Source: Eledone cirrhosa (lineage: Eukaryota). From it: DNA of 64,000 bases. The stretch covers positions 91,388,001-91,452,000 of the forward strand of contig OZ024742.1 of the NCBI GenBank assembly GCA_964016885.1, given 5' to 3'. Below are positions 13,345 to 62,447 of this stretch, piece after piece; within the stretch, counting starts at the first letter, position 1, and each line of letters opens with the position of its first letter. Below the pieces are notes generated by a model. It ran no database searches, had not been told where the DNA came from, and saw only the letters and a program-made list of their open reading frames with translations. The position numbers and the translations under genes are program-made.

Positions 13345-13654
13345 TATATAAACACATACATATACATACATATGTATGTATTTGTATATGTATATATATT
13401 TACATATATAAGTGCATGTATATATATATATGAAATTAGAATTTTATTTCTCGCCCTAGCACAGCTGATACACAAATGTAAGTGTGCATACGTACTCACA
13501 CACACACATACATGTACGTATGGGTTAAAATCGAACATTAATAATAATATTCGATTCGTTTGTAAAACAACGGCCCGATTAAAGTTGTGCCATGCCAACG
13601 ACAAATCGTCATCCATTTGTACATCACTGGCATTGAGGAACAGTCAACATGTTT

Positions 13655-17502: not shown

Positions 17503-18062
17503 TAGGATTTCGCTTCAAGCATAGCTTTGTACAATATGTATAAATATTTCGTATCTCCAAAGAAATACGGTTTTAGGAAGCCTTAGCTATTCAAACACCG
17601 GGGGGAGGAGGCTAACGCCCTCTGGTGATGTCCAGCAGAAGCAAGGGGGACAACCGTACTGAAATGCATAGACGGTTGTCCCCCTTGCTTCTGCTGGACA
17701 TCAACAGAGGGCGTTAACCACCTGGTGTTTGCATAGCTATGGCTTCGTAAAACCGTATTTTTTTGGAGATACGAAATATTTATACATATTGTATAAAGCT
17801 ATGCTTCAAGCGAAATCCTATTTCTTTTCTATTATAAGTTGAGCCAACTTATGCACCTTCATATGCTAATGTGATTAATCACCTCATTTACACAGACGAG
17901 AAAACTATATATTCTCGCCTGTCTTCTAGTCCAGCAGTCGCAAGCGGTGAGAGGGACCGTCCTGACGATGGCCAGTTAAGCCTGAAATGCATAGACGGTT
18001 GTTCCCCTTGCTTCTGCTGGACATCACCAGAGGGCGTTAGCACCCAGGTGTTTGCATAGCTA
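17503..18062 (+). mobile_element. Hammerhead-bearing retrozyme/Penelope-like element, family 1: fold-back plus partial tandem with 323-nt monomer
   Basis: Inverted arms 17503-17657 / 17672-17820; the segment ctgaaatgcatagacggttg...gcatagcta is repeated directly at a 323-nt interval. Confidence 0.8.
17956..17999 (+). ncRNA. Type I minimal hammerhead ribozyme
   Basis: accgtc CTGACGA t ggc-cagttaa-gcc t GAAA tgca TA gacggt: 6-bp stem I, palindromic stem III (ATGCAT), predicted cleavage after 17993. Confidence 0.85.
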
Positions 18063-18208: not shown

Positions 18209-18880
<672 letters not shown>

Positions 18881-18896
18881 ATATATATATATATAT

Positions 18897-19163
18897 AACG
18901 AAGGAAATGTGGTAAGGAACCAGATGGAACAATACGCACCAAAGTACTCAATACTTAGGGTAGTAGAGTGGGTAATAGGAACAAGTAGGACCCCGACGGC
19001 TGAGCTGAAGCCGTTTCGACGGCTAATTCTGGACTAAATGAATTTTTTTACCCTGGTCAGTGAATAGCCGAATTTCTCAGGGGGTAATTCCATATATGGT
19101 AAAAGTGATTGTCACAAGGATTGGTCAAAAGTTTGTTGTCAAGACACACGATTCTATCATGGC

Positions 19164-19166
<3 letters not shown>
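18897..19166 (-). mobile_element. Family 4 element with long-stem-II hammerhead-like motif (18990-19085)
   Basis: Minus strand: acccc CTGAGA aatt cggcta...tagccg tc GAAA cggct-tcagctc-agccg TC ggggt; the 5' core is one nucleotide short of CUGANGA. Confidence 0.65.
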
Positions 19167-19221
<55 letters not shown>

Positions 19222-19226
19222 TATAT

Positions 19227-19423
19227 ATAGGAAAATGTTTAACCCCGACGGCAGAGCTGAAACTGTTTCGACGGCTATTTCTGGACTCCAGAAATAGCCG
19301 TCGAAACGGCTGGAGCTCTGCCGTCGGGGTTAAACATTTTCCTATTACCCACTCTACTACCCTAAGTATTGAGTACTCTGGTGTGTTACGGTCCATCTGG
19401 TTCCTTACCACACTTCCTTCGTT
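19227..19423 (+). mobile_element. Family 4 element, 5'-truncated with 119-bp palindromic fold-back
   Basis: Palindrome 19227-19345 centred on 19286; retains the GAAAcggc...gccgTCggggt 3' half; flanked by (TA)n. Confidence 0.8.
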
Positions 19424-20092
19424 ATATATATATATCTGGTGGGGTGCAAGCGTGTGTATGTGTATATATGTATGTGTGTGTGTACTCGACATATTTGTTT
19501 AGCGTATTAATGTTTGCGAGAAAGCATTGAAAATGAATGGAAAATGTAAACAGTAGTTTGTCTCTGAAAAGTGTAAGGTTTTAGTTTAACAAATTGTTTG
19601 AACAGAATTTATATGTAGATAAAGTTAGCGGCTGCGAAGTGGTACGTGGTATGTGAGTGTGTATTTGTCTGTGGATTGAAACCAATGTGTGCTTCCATGT
19701 TTGCATTTGTCAGATAACACTGTTTATAAATACTTTCGACTATGTAAGAAAGGACCTTTTATTTATTTATTTATTTTTTGTTCATTATAATTCTACTTGT
19801 TTACTCCCTAAACGTTTCTTTTACAAAAAGGAAAAACAAGGAGGAAGAAAACAAGATTTTGTAACATATAGACATAGTCACGTGTTTGTCCATTCATTTT
19901 TTTGTAAGGAAACGTCAGATTCTCTCTTATAATGTAAGTACAAATGTATTGAGTGGCAGGCGACCTTTCGTTAGGATATTTCTAACGAAAGACACTACCT
20001 GTGTGTTTCGATTAATTTTGAAAATGCTGTAGTAAAAAATATGGGGGAATTTACTAAAAAATTAAATTTTTCATCATTAGGTTAGTTTGTAA

Positions 20093-33108: not shown

Positions 33109-33659
33109 TATATTATATTAGATTTGTGTCTTTGTGAATATATGTATGTGTGTATGTGTATGAAAAAAAGAGGGTGAGAGAAAAAAGAGAAAGAGAATGT
33201 AATGGGGAGGCGTATGGGAGGTGGTACAGAACTGAACGATGTGGTGTTGGGAGATAAAGAATACACAACACAGACAGAACATATACATACACACACACAC
33301 ACACACACACAAACATACACACAGAACACACACATACACACACACGTGTTTAAACTCACGTACACACGCATCACGGTTGATTAGACTGCCGTTCCATTTG
33401 GTTTATTGCCATTCCGAAGAGCCAAACTCTGCGAGAGCTAAAGAATCCCTCACCTTCACCACCATATACCAACACCCCACCCCTACTGCAATACAACCAC
33501 CAAACCAAACGCCATCGCCACCGCTGTCAACACCAGCACAACCATCAGAAAAGCTAACATCACAACCATCACAACCACCACTACCACCAGCAGCAACGCC
33601 ACCACCACTAATTCTATCACAACTACTACCACCATCACGACCACCACCACCACCACAAT

Positions 33660-36575
33660 CACCATTATAAAGACTTCCTCCACCACCACCACTACTATCA
33701 CCACAACTACCACAACCACCACCACCACCACCACCACCACCTACAACAACAACACCATACCAACACCACCAACAACAACACCACTACCAACACCAACACC
33801 ACTATACCAGCACCAGCAACACCAACACCACCAAACCACCAACACCACCAAACCACCAACACCACCACCACCACCACCACCACACCCATCCACCACCAAC
33901 ACCAACACCACCATACCAGCACCACCACACCCATCTACCACCAACACCACCACCAACACCACCACACACATCCACCACCAACACCACCAAACCACCAACA
34001 CCACCACCACCACCACACATCCACCACCAACACCAACACCACCATACCAGCACCACCACACACATCCACCACCAACACCACCAAACCACCAACACCACCA
34101 AACCACCAACACCACCACCACCACCACCACCACACATCCACCACCAACACCAACACCACCATACCACCACCACCACACACATCCACCACCAACACCAACA
34201 CCAGCACCACCACACACATCCACAACCAACACCAACACCACCATACCAGCACCACCACACACATCCACCACCAACACCACCAAACCACCAACACCACCAC
34301 CACCACCACCACACACATCGACCACCAACACCAACACCAACACCACCATACCAGCACCACCACACACATCCACCACCAACACCACCAAACCACCAACAGC
34401 ACCAACACCACCACCACCACCACCACCACACACATCCACCACCAACACCAACACCAGCACCACCACACACATCGACCACCAACACCAACACCAACACCAC
34501 CATACCAGCACCACCACACACATCCACCACCACACCACCAAACCACCACCAACAGCACCAACACCACCACCACCACCACCACCACACACATCCACCACCA
34601 ACACCAACACCACCATACCAGCACCACCACACACATCCACCACCAACACCACCAAACACCAACACCACCAAACCACCAACACCACCACCACCACCACCAC
34701 CACACATCCACCACCAACACCAACACCACCATACCACCACCACCACACACATCCACCACCAACACCAACACCAGCACCACCACACACATCCACAACCAAC
34801 ACCAACACCACCATACCAGCACCACCACACACATCCACCACCAACACCACCAAACCACCAACACCACCACCACCACCACCACACATCGACCACCAACACC
34901 AACACCAACACCACCATACCAGCACCACCACACACATCCACCACCAACACCACCAAACCACCAACAGCACCAACACCACCACCAACACCAACACCAACAC
35001 CACCATACCAGCACCACCACACACATCCACCACCAACACCACCAAACCACCAACAGCACCAACACCACCACCACCACCACCACCACACACATCCACCACC
35101 AACACCAACACCAGCACCACCATACCAGCACCACCACACACATCCACCACCAACACCACCAAACCACCAACAGCACCAACACCACCACCACCACCACCAC
35201 CACACACATCCACCACCAACACCAACACCAGCACCACCATACCAGCACCACCACACACATCCACCACCAACACCACCAAACCACCAACACCACCACCACC
35301 ACCACCACACACATCGACCACCAACACCAACACCAACACCACCATACCAGCACCACCACACACATCCACCACCAACACCACCAAACCACCAACAGCACCA
35401 ACACCACCACCACCACCACCACCACACACATCCACCACCAACACCAACACCAGCACCACCATACCAGCACCACCACACACATCCACCACCAACACCACCA
35501 AACCACCAACAGCACCAACACCACCACCACCCACCACCACCACACACATCCACCACCAACACCAACACCAGCACCACCATACCAGCACCACCACACACAT
35601 CCACCACCAACACCACCAAACCACCAACACCACCACCACCACCACCACCACATCGACCACCAACACCAACACCAACACCACCATACCAGCACCACCACAC
35701 ACATCCACCACCAACACCACCAAACCACCAACAGCACCAACACCACCACCACCACCACCACCACACACATCCACCACCAACACCAACACCAGCACCACCA
35801 TACCAGCACCACCACACACATCCACAACCAACACCAACACCACCATACCAGCACCACCACACACATCCACCACCAACACCACCAAACCACCAACACCACC
35901 AAACCACCAACACCAACATCACCACCACCATACCAGCACCACCAACACCAACACCACCATGCCAGCACCACCAACACCAACACCAACACCACCATACCAG
36001 CACCACCACACCCATCCACCACCAACATCACCACCACCATACCAGCACCACCAACACCAACACCACCATGCCAGCACCACCAACACCAACACCACACCAC
36101 CATACCAGCACCACCACACCCATCCACCACCAACATCACCACCAACACCACCATACCAGCACCACCACACACATCCACCACCAACACCACCAAACCACCA
36201 ACACCACCACCAGCACCACACACACATCCACCACCAACATCACCACCAACACCACCATACCAGCACCACCACACACATCCACCACCAACACCAACACCAC
36301 CATACCAACACCACCACACCCATCCACCACCAACATCACCACCAACACCACCATACCAGCACCACCACACACATCCACCAACACCACCAAACCACCAACA
36401 CCACCACCGCCACACATATCCACCACCAACACCACCACCAACACCACCATACCAGCACCACCACACCCATCCACCACCAACACCAACACCACCATACCAG
36501 CACCACCACACCCACCCACCACCAACACCACCAACACCACCACAACCACTACCACCACCACCACTACCACCACTA
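33660..36575. repeat. ~2.9-kb (CCA)n-derived complex satellite
   Basis: Recurrent subunits caccaccataccagcaccaccacacacatccaccaccaac and caccaccaaaccaccaacagcaccaa; local higher-order period of about 117 nt near 35.0-35.3 kb. Confidence 0.95.
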
Positions 36576-36924
36576 TTAATGAAATATTCGACATAAAGTA
36601 AGAAGTTGGCCCAGTTGCGGTGCGTTTCTTTTGATATAAATTTTTCATTCATTTTTATCTCTTTGTAGATAAAATGACTTTCATTGCCTCCTGCTATCCT
36701 CACTTCTCCCCCACCCCACGTCATTTCATTTTCTCTCTGTGTACCTGCCTGTCTCTCATTGTCTTTCTCTTTCAGTCACACTTTCATTTCTCCTTACTTT
36801 TCTCTCTTCTTTCTCTCTCCATCACTTATCTTCTATCTCCCTTATTTTATTAATCAATCCGAAGTTGTTACCGTGTTGAGTCAGGTGGAAAAATATGTAA
36901 AAGCTGAAATAAAGGTTGATGAAG

Positions 36925-36994
36925 AGAGAGAGAGAGAGAGAGCGAGGGGAGGGAGCTTAAGGGGAGAAAGAGGGGAGAGCGAGTCGGAGCTTCT

Positions 36995-37052
<58 letters not shown>

Positions 37053-37099
37053 GGGAGGGAGCTTAAGGGAGAAAGAGGGGAGAGCGAGTCGGAGCTTCT

Positions 37100-37161
<62 letters not shown>

Positions 37162-37280
37162 GGGAGGGAGCTTAAGGAGAGAAAGAGGGGAGAGCGAGTC
37201 GGAACTTCTGAAGAGAGAGAGAGAGAGAGAGGGGAGGGAGCTTAAGGAGAGAAAGAGGGGGAGAGCGAGTCGGAGCTTCT

Positions 37281-37323
<43 letters not shown>

Positions 37324-37394
37324 AGGGGGGGGAGAGAGCGAGAGAGGGGAGGGAGCTTAAGGGGAGAAAGAGGGGAGAGCGAGTCGGAGCTCCT

Positions 37395-37462
<68 letters not shown>

Positions 37463-37512
37463 GGGAGGGAGCTTAAGGGGAGAAAGAGGGGAGAGCGAGT
37501 CGGAGCTTCTGA

Positions 37513-37548
<36 letters not shown>

Positions 37549-37606
37549 AGCGAGAGAGGGGAGGGAGCTTAAGGAGAGAAAGAGGGGAGAGCGAGTCGGA
37601 GCTTCT

Positions 37607-37652
<46 letters not shown>

Positions 37653-37710
37653 AGCGAGAGAGGGGAGGGAGCTTAAGGGGAGAAAGAGGGGAGAGCGAGT
37701 CGGAGCTTCT

Positions 37711-37784
<74 letters not shown>

Positions 37785-37832
37785 GGGAGGGAGCTTAAGG
37801 GGAGAAAGAGGGGAGAGCGAGTCGGAGCTTCT

Positions 37833-37890
<58 letters not shown>

Positions 37891-37937
37891 GGGAGGGAGC
37901 TTAAGGGGAGAAAGAGGGAGAGCGAGTCGGAGCTTCT

Positions 37938-38003
<66 letters not shown>

Positions 38004-38220: not shown

Positions 38221-38755
38221 TAAAGCGATAGCTTCCATCCAGTGAGAAAGAGAGAGAAAGTGTGAGAGGCCAGTAAGCTTTTGGGGAGAGAGCATGTGAG
38301 AGAGAGCTCTGGGGGAGAGACAGAGGGAGAGGGTGAGAGCGGGAAAGAGAAACCTTTAGGGGCGAGAGAAGAGAGAATGAAGTAGTGGGGGGGGGGGAGA
38401 AAACAAAGAGTGGAAGAGAGACTGGGAGAAAGAGATTATAACATTACAGGTTGACGCCAGTTATAGCAGCATTACCAGCAGCACTATCACCATCATCATC
38501 AGAAGTAGTCCACGATCATTAACACTATGTATGTATTGTATATATATATATAAGTATGTACACGTACATACATATATGTATACAGACGTACAGTAGTATG
38601 TATATATATATACATACATGCACACATATATATATGTACGTATGGATTCACCGAACATTTATTATAATGCTCGGTGTGTTTGTAAACAAACATCCCGTAT
38701 TAAGCCGTAGTGTCCAGCAACCATCGTTGCTCGTTTGTTCAACACTGACAAAGGA

Positions 38756-38798
38756 ACGCTGTACTAGTTTCAAGCTTATTAGCTATCGTCAGCAACGT
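38756..38798 (-). ncRNA. Type I minimal hammerhead ribozyme (family 2, intact)
   Basis: Exact reverse complement of 39015-39057. Confidence 0.85.
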
Positions 38799-39014
38799 AT
38801 ACCTTCCTGCCAGATTGTTGAACGTATATACTTACCTTATGCATATTAACGGCTGAGTGGCCCAATTTGCATATCGAGTGGGTTAATCGGCCGGGTGCAC
38901 CGAAAACGATAAACGGAAAAAATGAAACAAAATTTCATTTCCCACTCTTATGAAACTCAGCCGTTAATATGCATAAGGTAAGTATATACGTTCAACAATC
39001 TGGCAGGAAGGTAT

Positions 39015-39057
39015 ACGTTGCTGACGATAGCTAATAAGCTTGAAACTAGTACAGCGT
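39015..39057 (+). ncRNA. Type I minimal hammerhead ribozyme (family 2, intact)
   Basis: acgttg CTGACGA t agct-aata-agct t GAAA ctag TA cagcgt. Confidence 0.88.
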
Positions 39058-39373
39058 TCCTTTGTCAGTGTTGAACAAACGAGCAACGATGGTTGCTGGA
39101 CACTACGGCTTAATACGGGATGTTTGTTTACAAACACACCGAGCATTATAATAAATGTTCGGTGGATCCATACGTACATATATATATGTGTGCATGTATG
39201 TATATATATACATACTACTGTACGTCTGTATACATATATGTATGTACGTGTACATACTTATATTTAAGTAACAGCCGTACTAAGAGTGGGAAATGAAATT
39301 TCGTTTCATTTTATCCGTTTATATATATATACAATATATTAACAAATGGAAACTATATTTATAAAACCATATT

Positions 39374-39439
39374 TATTTCATTATACATATTTCAAGGGCC
39401 ACCAAGGTAAACTATGGTGCGCTTTCATCAGATAAAATA
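39374..39439 (-). ncRNA. Type I hammerhead ribozyme (family 3)
   Basis: Antisense arm copy with CTGATGA core. Confidence 0.75.
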
Positions 39440-39587
39440 TAATATAGGTTATTTTATAAATAAATATTGACATACCCTTAAAAAATGCAACCATTCTACA
39501 ACTATCCAGGAGATTCCAACCAGAATGGTTGCATTTTTTAAGGGTATGTCAATATTTATTTATAAAACTAACCTATATTATATATTA

Positions 39588-39653
39588 TATTTTATCTGAC
39601 GAAAGCGCACCATAGTTTACCTTGGTGGCCCTTGAAATATGTATAATGAAATA
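39588..39653 (+). ncRNA. Type I hammerhead ribozyme (family 3)
   Basis: tattttat CTGACGA aagcgcacca-tagtttacct-tggtggccctt GAAA tatgta TA atgaaata; 8-bp stem I. Confidence 0.78.
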
Positions 39654-39772
39654 AATATAGTTTTATAAATATAGTTTCCATTTGTATATTTACTTCAATA
39701 ATTAGTTCAGTGCTTTATATCAGTTATAAAAATATTTTGCTTGTTGTATCCCAACAAATTAAATATAACCTC

Positions 39773-40117
<345 letters not shown>

Positions 40118-40124
40118 ATTATAT

Positions 40125-40183
<59 letters not shown>

Positions 40184-40461
40184 GTATGTATGCATATATA
40201 TGTGTGTGTGTGTGTATGTATGTATATGTGTGTGTATGTATGTGTGCATGTATATGTGTGTATGTATTTATTTATGAATGTATTTATGTATGAATGTATT
40301 TATGTATGTATGTATATATGTATGTATGTATCTATGTATGTATGTATGAATATGTATGTATGTATGTAAGTATGTATGTATGTATGTATGTATGTATGTA
40401 TGTATGTATGTATGTATGTATGTATGTATGTATGTATGTATCTATGTATGTATGTATGAAT

Positions 40462-48756: not shown

Positions 48757-48967
48757 CATACATAGATAAATACTCATATACACATACAGACACACACACA
48801 CAGAAACGTAAACACGTGTATATCTATAAATACACACACAAACAGACACACACAGACAGACACATATACATACATATATAGATAACTGTACATACATACA
48901 TACACACACATATATACATTCACACACACATATATATGTGTGTGTGTAGTTATCTATCTATCTATCT

Positions 48968-50262
48968 CGAACACTTTTATAGCGTCCGCCATCTACTACC
49001 GCTTGACCGTCGTGCCTTGTCCAGCCAAAACGCTCACCAAAATGGAGCGCGCGCTCTTCCGATTCCTTTGGAAGAGGCGGGCTCCTTTGGTGAGAAGATC
49101 CATCTGCTGCCAACACCCTTCTAACGGAGGGCTGGGGATGCCGTGGTTGACGATGCGCAAACACGCGCTCAGGCTGCGGCATCTCTACGTATTCCTCACC
49201 GGACAACCGGTGTGGGCCCCGTTCGTGAGGCGAGCCTTCCCACGACTCGTCTCGCTGACCGAGCTGCAGTCCTGGGTCAAGCAGAGACCGAGGAAAATGG
49301 GCGACTGGCACATCGAATGTGCTCAGGCGCTCACAGCCCTCTGGCAGGCGGACCCGGAGATCAGTGGAGACTCCACTTCGTCATTCTATAGAGGGTTGGT
49401 CCGCAGCAAGTGCGACGACGCGCTCGGTGAAACTCTAGGCGTAGAGGAAGATGAACTGGCCAGTCTGTTCGGTAGGACCTTCCGCCCGGTACCGATGGAC
49501 AACTTCCAAAAGTCCCTGGCCTGGCAGTGCTACCGAGGAGCTCTACCAGTTCGAGACAAGCTCTACAGACATGGGCGCCCGGGCAGGGACCCTGCAAAAA
49601 AGATCTGTCCGAGGTGCGTGCGAGACGAAGAAACCGTCGCGCACGCATTCATACACTGCCCGGCCGTCACTGACCTGTGGGGCTATGTAGAACGACTATT
49701 GTCGCGGGTGGGACCAATCCAGTTGACCACCGAGTCCATTGTCATGATCAAACCGCCACCCTCCTTCAAAAACGAAGGAGAGGCGGTTTTCCTTTGTGTG
49801 ATAGCTATGGCGAAAGAGGTTGTATGGTGGACAAGGTTGAAAGGGCTGAGGTCAGACATCTTTCTCTCCGGCCAACAACTGATTCTTTTTTTCAAATACC
49901 ACTTTGGAAGAAGAATCAGGATGGAGAGAGAGGTGCTGTACCCCAGCAAGTTTTATGAAAGGTGGGTGAAAGTGGCGAGAATGGCCCGAGTGAATGGGCC
50001 TTCTCTCTATATCAGCCTGTAGGTTGAGGAAAAGGAGGAGGAGAGGAAAGGAGTACAAGCTCTTCGTACTCCTGGAGATGAGGGTTGCACATTTTTTTTC
50101 GGGGGTATGTGTTACTCATATAAACTGTCTCCCTCTATTGGGGAAAATCGACTAACTTTTAAATTCCATCTGTGATAACATTTTACACGTTTTTATTGTA
50201 TGTAAACTTCCCCCTTTGTATTTGTCCCCTTCTTTTGTGCCCCTGTGGCTAATAAAGAAATA
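48968..50262 (+). mobile_element. 5'-truncated L1/Tx1-clade LINE with uninterrupted ORF2 C-terminus (to 50022) and 3' UTR
   Basis: About 350 open codons: FLW...GGLG, zf-RVT type CPRC..DEETVAHAFIHCP; GC-rich relative to flanks; AATAAA near 50251; microsatellite flanks. Confidence 0.9.
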
Positions 50263-50990: not shown

Positions 50991-51611
50991 CTGACTCGAT
51001 GTTAGTATAATTATTTCTACTTTTGGTACAAGGCCAGCAATTAACCCAGTACATTACTGGTACTTTATTTTATCGACCCCGTAAAGATGAAAGGCAAAAT
51101 GAACCTCGGCGGGATTTGAACTCAAACCGTAAAGGGGCGTAACTCTATGCTGCAAAGCATGGCGTCCGACCCTCTACTGAAAATGTCAATCCAGGCACAA
51201 GGTCAACAATTTGTTTCTTTTTTTTGTGTGTGTGTGTGTGTGGGTGGGCAATTAAATCGATTCCAGAACATTACTGGTACTTTACTTTATCAACCCCGTA
51301 AGGATGAAAGGTAAAGCTAACCTCGGCGGGATTTAACCTCAGGACGTAATATAATAATGAAAATATCTGCGGACAATTGATGAGGAACCTGCAGAATATT
51401 TACCCATATTAGACCTTCACTATTGGAGCAAAGGGATATATACATACTCACCCGGACCAATGTTATGTAAACAGAACTCGGAAATCGAAACCAAATAGTC
51501 TGAGGCTATCTACAACAGATAAACTGTACAAAAACCATGTATGTATGTATGTATGTATGTATGTATGTATGTATGTATGTATGTATGTATGTATGTATGT
51601 ATGTATGTATG

Positions 51612-52076
51612 TGTTGGGAGAATGTTGCTGCTGATCGTAATAAATGGAGAAAGACTGTATATGAGGGAAAAGTTGCCTTTGAGGCATCTCGAATCGCATA
51701 CGAGAAAGTAAAGCGGGATGTGAGGAAGGGCATTGCTGTTGCACTTCCAGACGGAGAGGGTCCTCCTATGGTGCTGACATGCAGCGTCTGTGCGAGACTC
51801 TGCCTAAGCAAAGCTGGACTCGAAAGTCATCTTCGCAGTCATAAAGTAAGACCAGTGGTTGACTACCAGGCTGCGGTTGGAGATGCTACTCATCATGCTT
51901 GCCAAGCATGTGGTAGAGAATGTAAATCAGCAGGAGGGCTCAAGCGACATTCAAAAGTACACGAACTCCAACCACAGCCGACTATTCGCAGTGAATGTTT
52001 TGGTTGCCGACTCTGTGCAAGACATTTTAGATCATTGGCTGGGCTAAAAAGCCACGTTCGATCGCAGCACTGTTAG
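51612..52076 (+). mobile_element. RTE-clade LINE ORF C-terminus with three C2H2 fingers
   Basis: WENVAADRNKWR motif, then CSVC..SKAGLESHLRSH, CQAC..SAGGLKRHSKVH and CRLC..SLAGLKSHVRSQH; 5'-truncated at (TATG)n; matching 3' tail at about 52440-52477. Confidence 0.85.
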
Positions 52077-61838: not shown

Positions 61839-62135
<297 letters not shown>

Positions 62136-62313
62136 TCGTATATATATATATATATATTGTTATACTTTGGGAGGGTCATGTTGCCAATAAGAAACGTACG
62201 CACCAGTTGCTTTCACTTCAATTTATTATAATAAATTTATAAATTTAGGAATTTATAAATTTCCGGTTGGTTGGTTTTCATATATATATATATGAAAACG
62301 TTCAGAGTCTTGA

Positions 62314-62401
62314 ACATTTTCCTATTACCCACTCTACTACCCTAAGTATTGAGTACTCTGATGCGTTATGGTCCATCTGGTTCCTTACTACACTTCCTTC
62401 G

Positions 62402-62404
<3 letters not shown>
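62314..62404 (+). mobile_element. Family 4 3' fragment
   Basis: Matches 19333-19423; ends ccttcgtt-(AT)n. Confidence 0.8.

Positions 62405-62447
<43 letters not shown>

Follow-up and report, generated by a model that had tools for sequence, protein, structure and literature searches.

A young head-to-head insertion of a non-coding 418-nt hammerhead unit with the insertion signature of Penelope-like elements

The fold-back at 38548–39322 and its surroundings

The DNA analysed here, a 64,000-nt stretch of the Eledone cirrhosa genome (contig OZ024742.1, positions 91,388,001 to 91,452,000; hereafter the window), is microsatellite-rich eukaryotic DNA. At 38548–39322, two copies of a small element are joined head to head. 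In a self-comparison of the window, the left arm (38548–38858) and the right arm (38955–39263) are 99.0% identical over 311 columns and differ by one substitution (38645/39168) and one 2-nt TA slip, bearing out the near-identity described in an earlier note on this DNA. We name the arm start A, the arm body B, 39264–39280 C, 39281–39322 X, and 38859–38908 Y. The left copy (38548–38950, minus strand) reads X-Y-A-hammerhead-B; it has a short 3′ end without a tail and is 5′-truncated ~17 nt before a full 418-nt round. The right copy (38955–39322, plus strand, 368 nt) reads A-hammerhead-B-C-X; it is also 5′-truncated and has a long 3′ end with a tail.

Segment X of the right copy is an inverted match to 38950–38909 over 40 of 42 nt (E = 1.7e-13 within the window), giving a second copy of X at 38909–38950 on the minus strand. 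Segment Y (38859–38908, minus strand), 50 nt in length and predicted to pair with X and with A, connects the unit end X to A; it is single in the window, yet family-wide in sequencing runs. The implied unit is 326 + 92 = 418 nt. The earlier note had proposed that X, inverted in the spacer, closes the unit on itself and directly adjoins the right arm. The closure holds, but the direct adjacency does not, as 4 nt absent from both parent contexts (38951–38954) intervene at the head-to-head junction. Three further features of the right copy lie on the plus strand. Two hairpins (39082–39097 and 39137–39164) occupy 39082–39164, with pairs that are retained in a 75%-identical old relative; a 25-bp TA/TG-rich stem in segment B (39170–39251) is predicted by folding; and C and X form a ~60-nt 'tail' (39264–39322), which only the right copy has at its 3′ end and in which X folds into a 10-bp hairpin. 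The left arm has Y without C and the right arm has C without Y, indicating that neither arm was copied from the other and excluding simple fold-back copying.

Both outer ends of the fold-back lie in (TA)n. The left target tract spans 38539–38552 and blurs the 3′ end of the left copy over 38548–38552; the right (TA)6 target tract (39320–39331) is common to an adjoining fold-back of another hammerhead family. Both ends are inside (TA)n, where a target-site duplication is unreadable. Direct terminal repeats are absent from the locus. It is highly improbable that the arrangement is an assembly artefact, namely a hairpin chimera of long reads. The very high arm identity would be expected of a chimera, and none of the contigs listed in the sequencing-run survey spans the whole stretch; however, the arms differ, their outer flanks are unrelated, each arm has sequence missing from the other, and older fold-backs in the window have arms of 90–96% identity.

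An older head-to-head insertion of the same family, of a subfamily with a G.U pair in stem I, lies at 18303–18891 (locus 2). Its left copy has the tail, and its outer ends, like those of 38548–39322, are in (TA)n. The arm at 18684 has a mismatch in stem II, the partner arm has core mutations, and the two arms have 8 private differences in 200 columns. The junction is at a TATATA-centred palindrome (18640–18660). A subfamily with an 8-nt insertion after 38987, found in sequencing runs X1 and X5, would form a 12-nt palindrome there, which may have let two cDNA ends anneal. The old relative, with ~75% identity to segment B, lies at 13488–13630 on the minus strand, and no hammerhead is recognised in it.

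Other repeats are found nearby. A second, unrelated hammerhead family forms the head-to-head fold-back at 39330–39775, which shares the (TA)6 tract with 38548–39322 and has a right arm ~80 nt longer, reaching (TA)n; a single copy of the same family lies between (TA)n tracts at 61954–62140. A third hammerhead family, at 17523–18062 (core at 17962, palindrome ATGCAT in helix III), consists of an inverted copy followed by a partial tandem with a 323-nt period and ends at (CA)n, which is the classic layout of Penelope-like elements (PLEs) with a body too short to code. Another (TA)n-inserted family, in which a motif scan finds no hammerhead, occurs at 18885–19435, 39906–40130, and 62310–62415. Its central palindromes are near-perfect (97% over 136 nt, 92% over 119 nt), and one of its insertions adjoins the (TA)n inside the right arm of locus 2. 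The region 33561–38003, located ~0.5 kb upstream of the 38548–39322 fold-back, contains a 3-kb degenerate (CAC/CAA)n array and then a 1-kb (AG)n-rich array. Two LINE-type ORFs, with zf-RVT and C2H2 fingers, are represented by their 3′ ends at 48886–50019 and 51504–52076 and are unrelated to the fold-back; a neighbouring LINE ORF end has 11 homologues, with Argonauta hians and Octopus sinensis as the two named animal sources.

The two family loci make an origin at the DNA level unlikely, whether by a foldback/MITE-type transposon with long terminal inverted repeats at TA or by inverted duplication or gene conversion, after insertion, of a satellite-like tandem repeat. The near-perfect arms, the TA flanks, the clustering of arms by locus, and the palindrome at the locus-2 junction would all fit such an origin. 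However, the ends are offset by ~60 nt and the two loci have different centres, which leaves no fixed terminal repeat, and some sequence in each arm is missing from its partner. In addition, the private differences between the locus-2 arms indicate that they are not kept homogenised, and the layout of 38548–39322 is repeated in the two other hammerhead families of the window (39330–39775 and 17523–18062).

The hammerhead motif and its variation

A motif scan identifies a hammerhead core at 39021 on the plus strand and at 38792 on the minus strand, with predicted cuts after GUA at 39051(+) and 38762(−). The motif spans 39008–39062 in the right copy and 38756–38798 in the left copy. Both arms have the same type I motif with a complete core, in agreement with the earlier description of an intact hammerhead in each arm. 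Helix I consists of 6 bp, a 3-nt bulge, and 4 bp. Helix II consists of 4 bp closed by an AAUA loop, with U.U at its base replacing the usual G10.1-C11.1 pair. Helix III is a single base pair within the palindrome ACUAGU. This 1-bp-helix-III layout is the architecture described in PMC4209133 for metazoan type I hammerheads that act as dimers, and cleavage of the present motif is predicted to be dimer-dependent via the palindrome. Weak cleavage is also predicted, from the 1-bp helix III and the U.U base of helix II.

Rfam gives no match in the whole window at gathering score, hammerhead models included; at E <= 10, 38500–40200 gives 91 matches, none of them to a hammerhead and most of them to miRNA models driven by repeats. 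The 60-nt hammerhead motif by itself folds no more stably than its shuffles (z = −1.05). Therefore, the ribozyme call relies on the motif, its geometry, and its pattern of variation.

The 38548–39322 locus has only one hammerhead per strand and is therefore unable to release a monomer by itself. Its read-through RNA is predicted to form a long duplex that buries the hammerhead. Taken with the single hammerhead per strand, this suggests that the locus is likely a dead-end copy.

The exact hammerhead pattern has no match in metagenome contigs. A relaxed pattern matches 28 metagenome and 3 viral loci, none of which has both stems of at least 4 bp; their likeness is limited to the motif, and we reject them as unrelated. 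Two metagenome loci (L006:4784-4818 and L025:2476-2510) have partial hammerhead-like stems around the same palindrome and no wider similarity to the family.

Stem I is acgttg/cagcgt at 38548–39322 and acggtg/catcgt in both arms of 18303–18891, i.e., U.G versus G.U at pair 39018/39054. Thus the change of both partners with pairing retained, on which the earlier note had remarked, is confirmed at the second locus. Covariation extends beyond the window, as the pair occurs in three forms family-wide, U.G, G.U, and A-U. In run X6, the shares of the 5′ letter (A/G/T, 0.69/0.16/0.15) and of the 3′ letter (T/G, 0.86/0.14) closely fit these three pair types. The G.U form is phased in record 10 of run X4 as well as in both arms of 18303–18891. 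The fit is looser in run X1, where the unphased shares are 0.36 for purine versus 0.54 for T, a mismatch implying that some copies have U.U. All three of the other X1 variants with a share of at least 5% within 39021–39051 are located at tolerant positions (N7, loop II, and the cleavage-site H), and none is located at the 23 constrained positions (p = 0.012). The three pair types and the confinement of variants to tolerant positions back the proposal of selection on ribozyme structure made in the earlier note; judging by this pattern of variation, selection on the hammerhead is well supported.

Structure beyond the hammerhead is less sharply defined by the variants. The circular 418-nt unit is predicted to fold with z = −7.5 and 70% of positions paired, with helices I and II present and with helices across X-Y and Y-A; the fold signal comes partly from the TA-rich stem. 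Folding strength is near equal on both strands (z = −4.6 versus −4.4). When 30 unphased family variants are placed singly on the circle fold, 12 are unpaired, 6 keep pairing, and 12 break it, with 4 of these last 12 in two variable pairs. The whole-circle fold is thus a prediction that the family variants do not clearly confirm. In the old relative at 13488–13630, 17 of 17 pairs in the two downstream hairpins are kept despite 12 changes, four of them double-sided. In a simulation, this conservation has a p value of 2e-5 to 3e-3, which is suggestive given that the helices were picked from the young copy and that one of them has a hand-set 1-nt register shift. A formal pair count on the hairpin alignment (gap-free helix, five sequences) is not significant, with 222 of 500 shuffles. 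The end pair of the predicted X-Y helix, 39289/38881, varies in both partners (G to A; C to U), with unphased shares that are not exactly equal, and is possibly a second compensatory change, across the unit junction.

Unit junction, copy number, and coding content

Twenty of 24 sequencing runs contain part of the stretch, and none of the 20 is recorded as RNA. We compared the contigs of four of the 20 (X1, X4, X5, and X6), matching them at 80% likeness with 39163–39219 left out as repeat. Matching contigs number 12,393 in X1, 152 in X6, 47 in X5, and 3 in X4. X1 may be the window's own sample, and the few contigs of X4 and X5 may be carry-over rather than signs of other hosts. We reject a reading of the spread across runs as host range or horizontal transfer, as the words are almost absent from another run of X4's sample and the comparison covers 4 of 20 runs. 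In run X1, the family is high-copy, large, and varied.

Record 9 of run X4, a 218-nt contig with 2 differences, passes without gaps through 39228→39312, 38918→38859, and 38955→39027 (85 + 60 + 73 nt). Its order, B-C-X-Y-A, is absent from the 38548–39322 locus. Record 10 of the same run, which is diverged, has the same order with an interval of 111 nt versus the expected 107 nt. Among 26 listed records, from a set with 12,669 further pieces, four cross the X-Y junction (X4 record 9, X5 records 12 and 13, and X6 record 19; up to 14 differences per piece) and five cross the Y-A junction, in every case with 31 nt or more on either flank. The summed depth in X1, which is no copy number, is 0.82–1.07 M over Y and 0.83–1.09 M over A, indicating that Y is a normal part of the family. 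The end-to-start junction is thus shared family-wide rather than unique to the locus, and from these records the unit appears to close on itself. The end-to-start order in X4 records 9 and 10 supports the circular or tandem template suggested in the earlier note.

The 418-nt unit has a GC content of 38.5%. Its longest stop-free frame, with the unit in tandem, is 97 codons, and a Pfam scan of two frames gives no match. Among the 150 longest of the 257 complex ORFs of the window, Pfam identifies neither an RVT domain nor a GIY-YIG catalytic domain, and no ORF of a helper PLE is seen. The window has no array of two consecutive full units, and the longest run pieces listed are too short for two hammerheads.

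The share of contigs that continue into unlike sequence is 0 in X1, 0.04 in X6, 0.02 in X5, and 0.91 in X4; the last value comes from only 3 contigs, including the unmapped middle of record 10. Copies extending into a long RT ORF, an outcome considered in the earlier note, are not seen among the run contigs; these are short, and a rare autonomous parent is possible. The unlike sequence beside Y or X is entered in X6 at 38910 (2 records, 4%, ~140 nt) and in X5 at 38920 (1 record, 2%, 148 nt), and these continuations may be candidates for a longer, possibly autonomous parent or for a variant unit.

Conceivably, the copies are 5′-truncated pseudo-LTR remnants of an autonomous PLE, and X-Y-A arose by accident where two truncated copies met. 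The PLE-like insertion features would agree with this, and the continuations in X6 and X5 may belong to the longer parent. However, the X-Y junction is at a constant place in copies with up to 14 differences from three runs, coverage of Y is as deep as that of A, none of the X1 share continues into unlike sequence, and the unit contains no long ORF. We therefore consider such remnants very unlikely.

Insertion features, template, and relation to known elements

In both of the hammerhead-bearing family loci of the window, an inverted 5′-truncated copy is positioned head to head. The copies have two 3′ ends, ~39263 and ~39322, which are ~60 nt apart. The short 3′ end is that of the left copy of 38548–39322, and it recurs as loose ends at 39262–39266 in X4, X5, and X6. 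The long 3′ end is that of the right copy of 38548–39322 and of the left copy of 18303–18891, and in 70 records of X1 it is followed by (TA)n at 39331. The two 3′ ends may correspond to two start sites of reverse transcription. PLEs that bear an endonuclease (EN) are described as having a signature of a head-to-head 5′-truncated copy, a one-sided tail, and microsatellite targets (PMC8557442, PMC3846280). PMC11167929 describes how the Poseidon protein of the anole acts on AT-rich DNA, cleaving each strand and extending it, with reverse transcription starting at two internal sites that delimit the tail. This known PLE insertion signature is matched by the fold-back, its (TA)n target, and its unequal 3′ ends, a point that goes beyond the earlier note.

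The arms cluster by locus, with 11 locus-specific differences common to paired arms, indicating one template or sister templates per locus. Given that neither arm could be templated by its partner, reverse transcription was likely primed from each target strand, on a template that was either closed or tandem. The simplest inference, and a probable one, is twin priming, in which one cDNA was primed from each of the two strands of the cut (TA)n tract and the cDNA ends were then joined. All four young arms in the window cross the cut site, indicating that a cleaved linear monomer was not their template.

Metazoan non-LTR retrozymes are described as non-coding units of 150–450 bp with a type I hammerhead, a GC content below 50%, and head-to-tail junctions (PMC7229834; 10.64898/2026.07.22.740005). 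Further traits of such retrozymes are the lack of an LTR, PBS, and PPT, target-site duplications that, where present, exceed 4 bp, and self-cleavage with linear and circular RNA forms; 10.64898/2026.07.22.740005 also asks for two or more units in succession, each carrying a complete hammerhead. The 418-nt unit is likewise small and non-coding, and its predicted circle is strongly self-paired; on sequence it fits their testable features, namely type I hammerhead, size, head-to-tail junction, lack of an ORF, and low GC (38.5%). Its 1-bp helix III with a palindromic loop resembles that of axolotl HHR_Amex1, and the U.U at the base of helix II resembles that of HHR_Amex2 (both as presented in PMC7229834); mussel retrozyme units are reported to be 350–390 nt, compared with 418 nt here. 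In contrast to metazoan retrozymes, the 418-nt family is seen here not in arrays but as dispersed insertions in (TA)n that are permuted, head to head, and tailed on one side. Such a signature is not described for retrozymes in the parts of PMC7229834 and 10.64898/2026.07.22.740005 available to us, and the terms 'tail' and 'head-to' are absent from the available part of the latter.

EN-bearing PLEs (Penelope/Poseidon, Neptune, and Naiad) share with the family the head-to-head inverted 5′-truncated copy, the tail at one end, and a hammerhead upstream of the 3′ ends, according to PMC8557442, PMC3846280, PMC11167929, and PMC4209133. Also shared, from these accounts, are an AT-rich or (TA)n target and, at locus 2, a palindrome at the inverted junction. 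Unlike these PLEs, the family has no RT or GIY-YIG ORF; its tail is ~60 nt, whereas a PLE tail is typically given as 30–40 nt; and after 50 nt the tail enters the start of the next unit, not an ORF. Green-algal Chlamys PLEs such as MRC1 are likewise described as non-coding PLE-type elements with pseudo-LTRs and head-to-tail insertions, but most Chlamys elements are reported to be without a canonical hammerhead, in contrast to the conserved hammerhead of the 418-nt family (PMC8557442).

The 418-nt element is not an autonomous PLE. It is very probably a non-autonomous PLE-type hammerhead element with a closed unit, and we would assign it to a new non-autonomous family that is PLE-type and non-LTR-retrozyme-like. 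A derivation of retrozymes from PLEs, as non-autonomous elements, has already been argued (10.64898/2026.07.22.740005); the present analysis adds the PLE tail and fold-back signature on a closed unit of retrozyme size. We found no literature pairing 'retrozyme' with 'head-to-head', in a search that Repbase, Dfam, and subscription journals fall outside. By title or abstract, and likewise outside Repbase and Dfam, no retrozyme or hammerhead family of this kind was found in Octopus or other cephalopods.

Our best explanation, held tentatively and with close to even confidence, is that 38548–39322 is a young head-to-head insertion of two 5′-truncated copies of a high-copy, non-coding 418-nt hammerhead unit, likely a non-LTR retrozyme and likely copied from circular RNA by a PLE endonuclease/reverse transcriptase acting in trans. 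Head-to-tail source copies would be transcribed, two hammerheads would pair via the ACUAGU palindrome and cut after GUA, and the monomer would be ligated into a circle. The PLE enzyme would then nick both (TA)n strands and prime reverse transcription at two internal sites ~60 nt apart, ~211 and ~271 nt downstream of the cut. Both cDNAs would cross the cut site, one of them making nearly a full round, and their 3′ ends would be joined with 4 added nt. Expression, catalysis, circularity, twin priming, and the identity of the helper are the presumed parts of such a cycle.

The same element and the same PLE twin priming could also operate without a circle. The template would then be an uncleaved linear head-to-tail multimer or a partial-tandem transcript, and the element would be a miniature non-autonomous PLE with the organization pLTR-short body-pLTR-tail. 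Between the two X copies, 2 of 42 nt are different, compared with 1 of ~312 nt between the arms (p = 0.039; one of the changes is CpG-type). Neighbouring units of a multimer are expected to differ in this manner, whereas a single-circle template is expected to give identical X copies. We dropped the possibility that the two X copies are pre-existing family alleles, as the majority letter occupies each of the two sites in X4 record 9 and in locus 2, so that the changes look private. The weak cleavage predicted from helices II and III is also consistent with a multimer, as is the partial tandem with a 323-nt period in another hammerhead family of the window. In accordance, hammerhead cleavage is reported to be dispensable for PAc insertion in vitro, and the PAc protein to use uncleaved RNA (PMC11167929). 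However, a multimer accounts less directly for the conservation of the core, given that the cut site is crossed by every young arm in the window. It also leaves to chance, at about 1 in 20, the stop of the left copy ~17 nt before one full round. Moreover, related axolotl retrozymes with a similarly weak, 1-bp helix III are reported to form circles (PMC7229834). We regard the multimer as a real possibility, held at somewhat less than even confidence, and lean slightly towards a circle rather than a linear multimer as the template.

In its most specific form, the circle reading takes 38548–39322 as the fossil of one ribozyme-made RNA circle that was reverse-transcribed twice by a PLE enzyme, once per cut target strand, which is possible but on balance doubtful. 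The enzyme that moves animal retrozymes, and circles as their templates, have so far been matters of hypothesis in the account of PMC7229834; the link of retrozymes to a PLE enzyme is drawn from co-occurrence and pLTR homology in 10.64898/2026.07.22.740005; and the formation of PLE head-to-head repeats is described as unsettled in PMC3846280. If the fossil reading is true, the locus would provide genomic evidence that animal retrozyme circles are true transposition templates of the PLE machinery. PLE head-to-head repeats would then result from twin priming on a sense template, not from self-priming on an antisense one, and this would be legible from thousands of copies in one genome. Many copies could decide between circle and multimer and between twin priming and self-priming. 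The 418-nt family provides a direct structural link of retrozymes to the PLE machinery, within single insertions.
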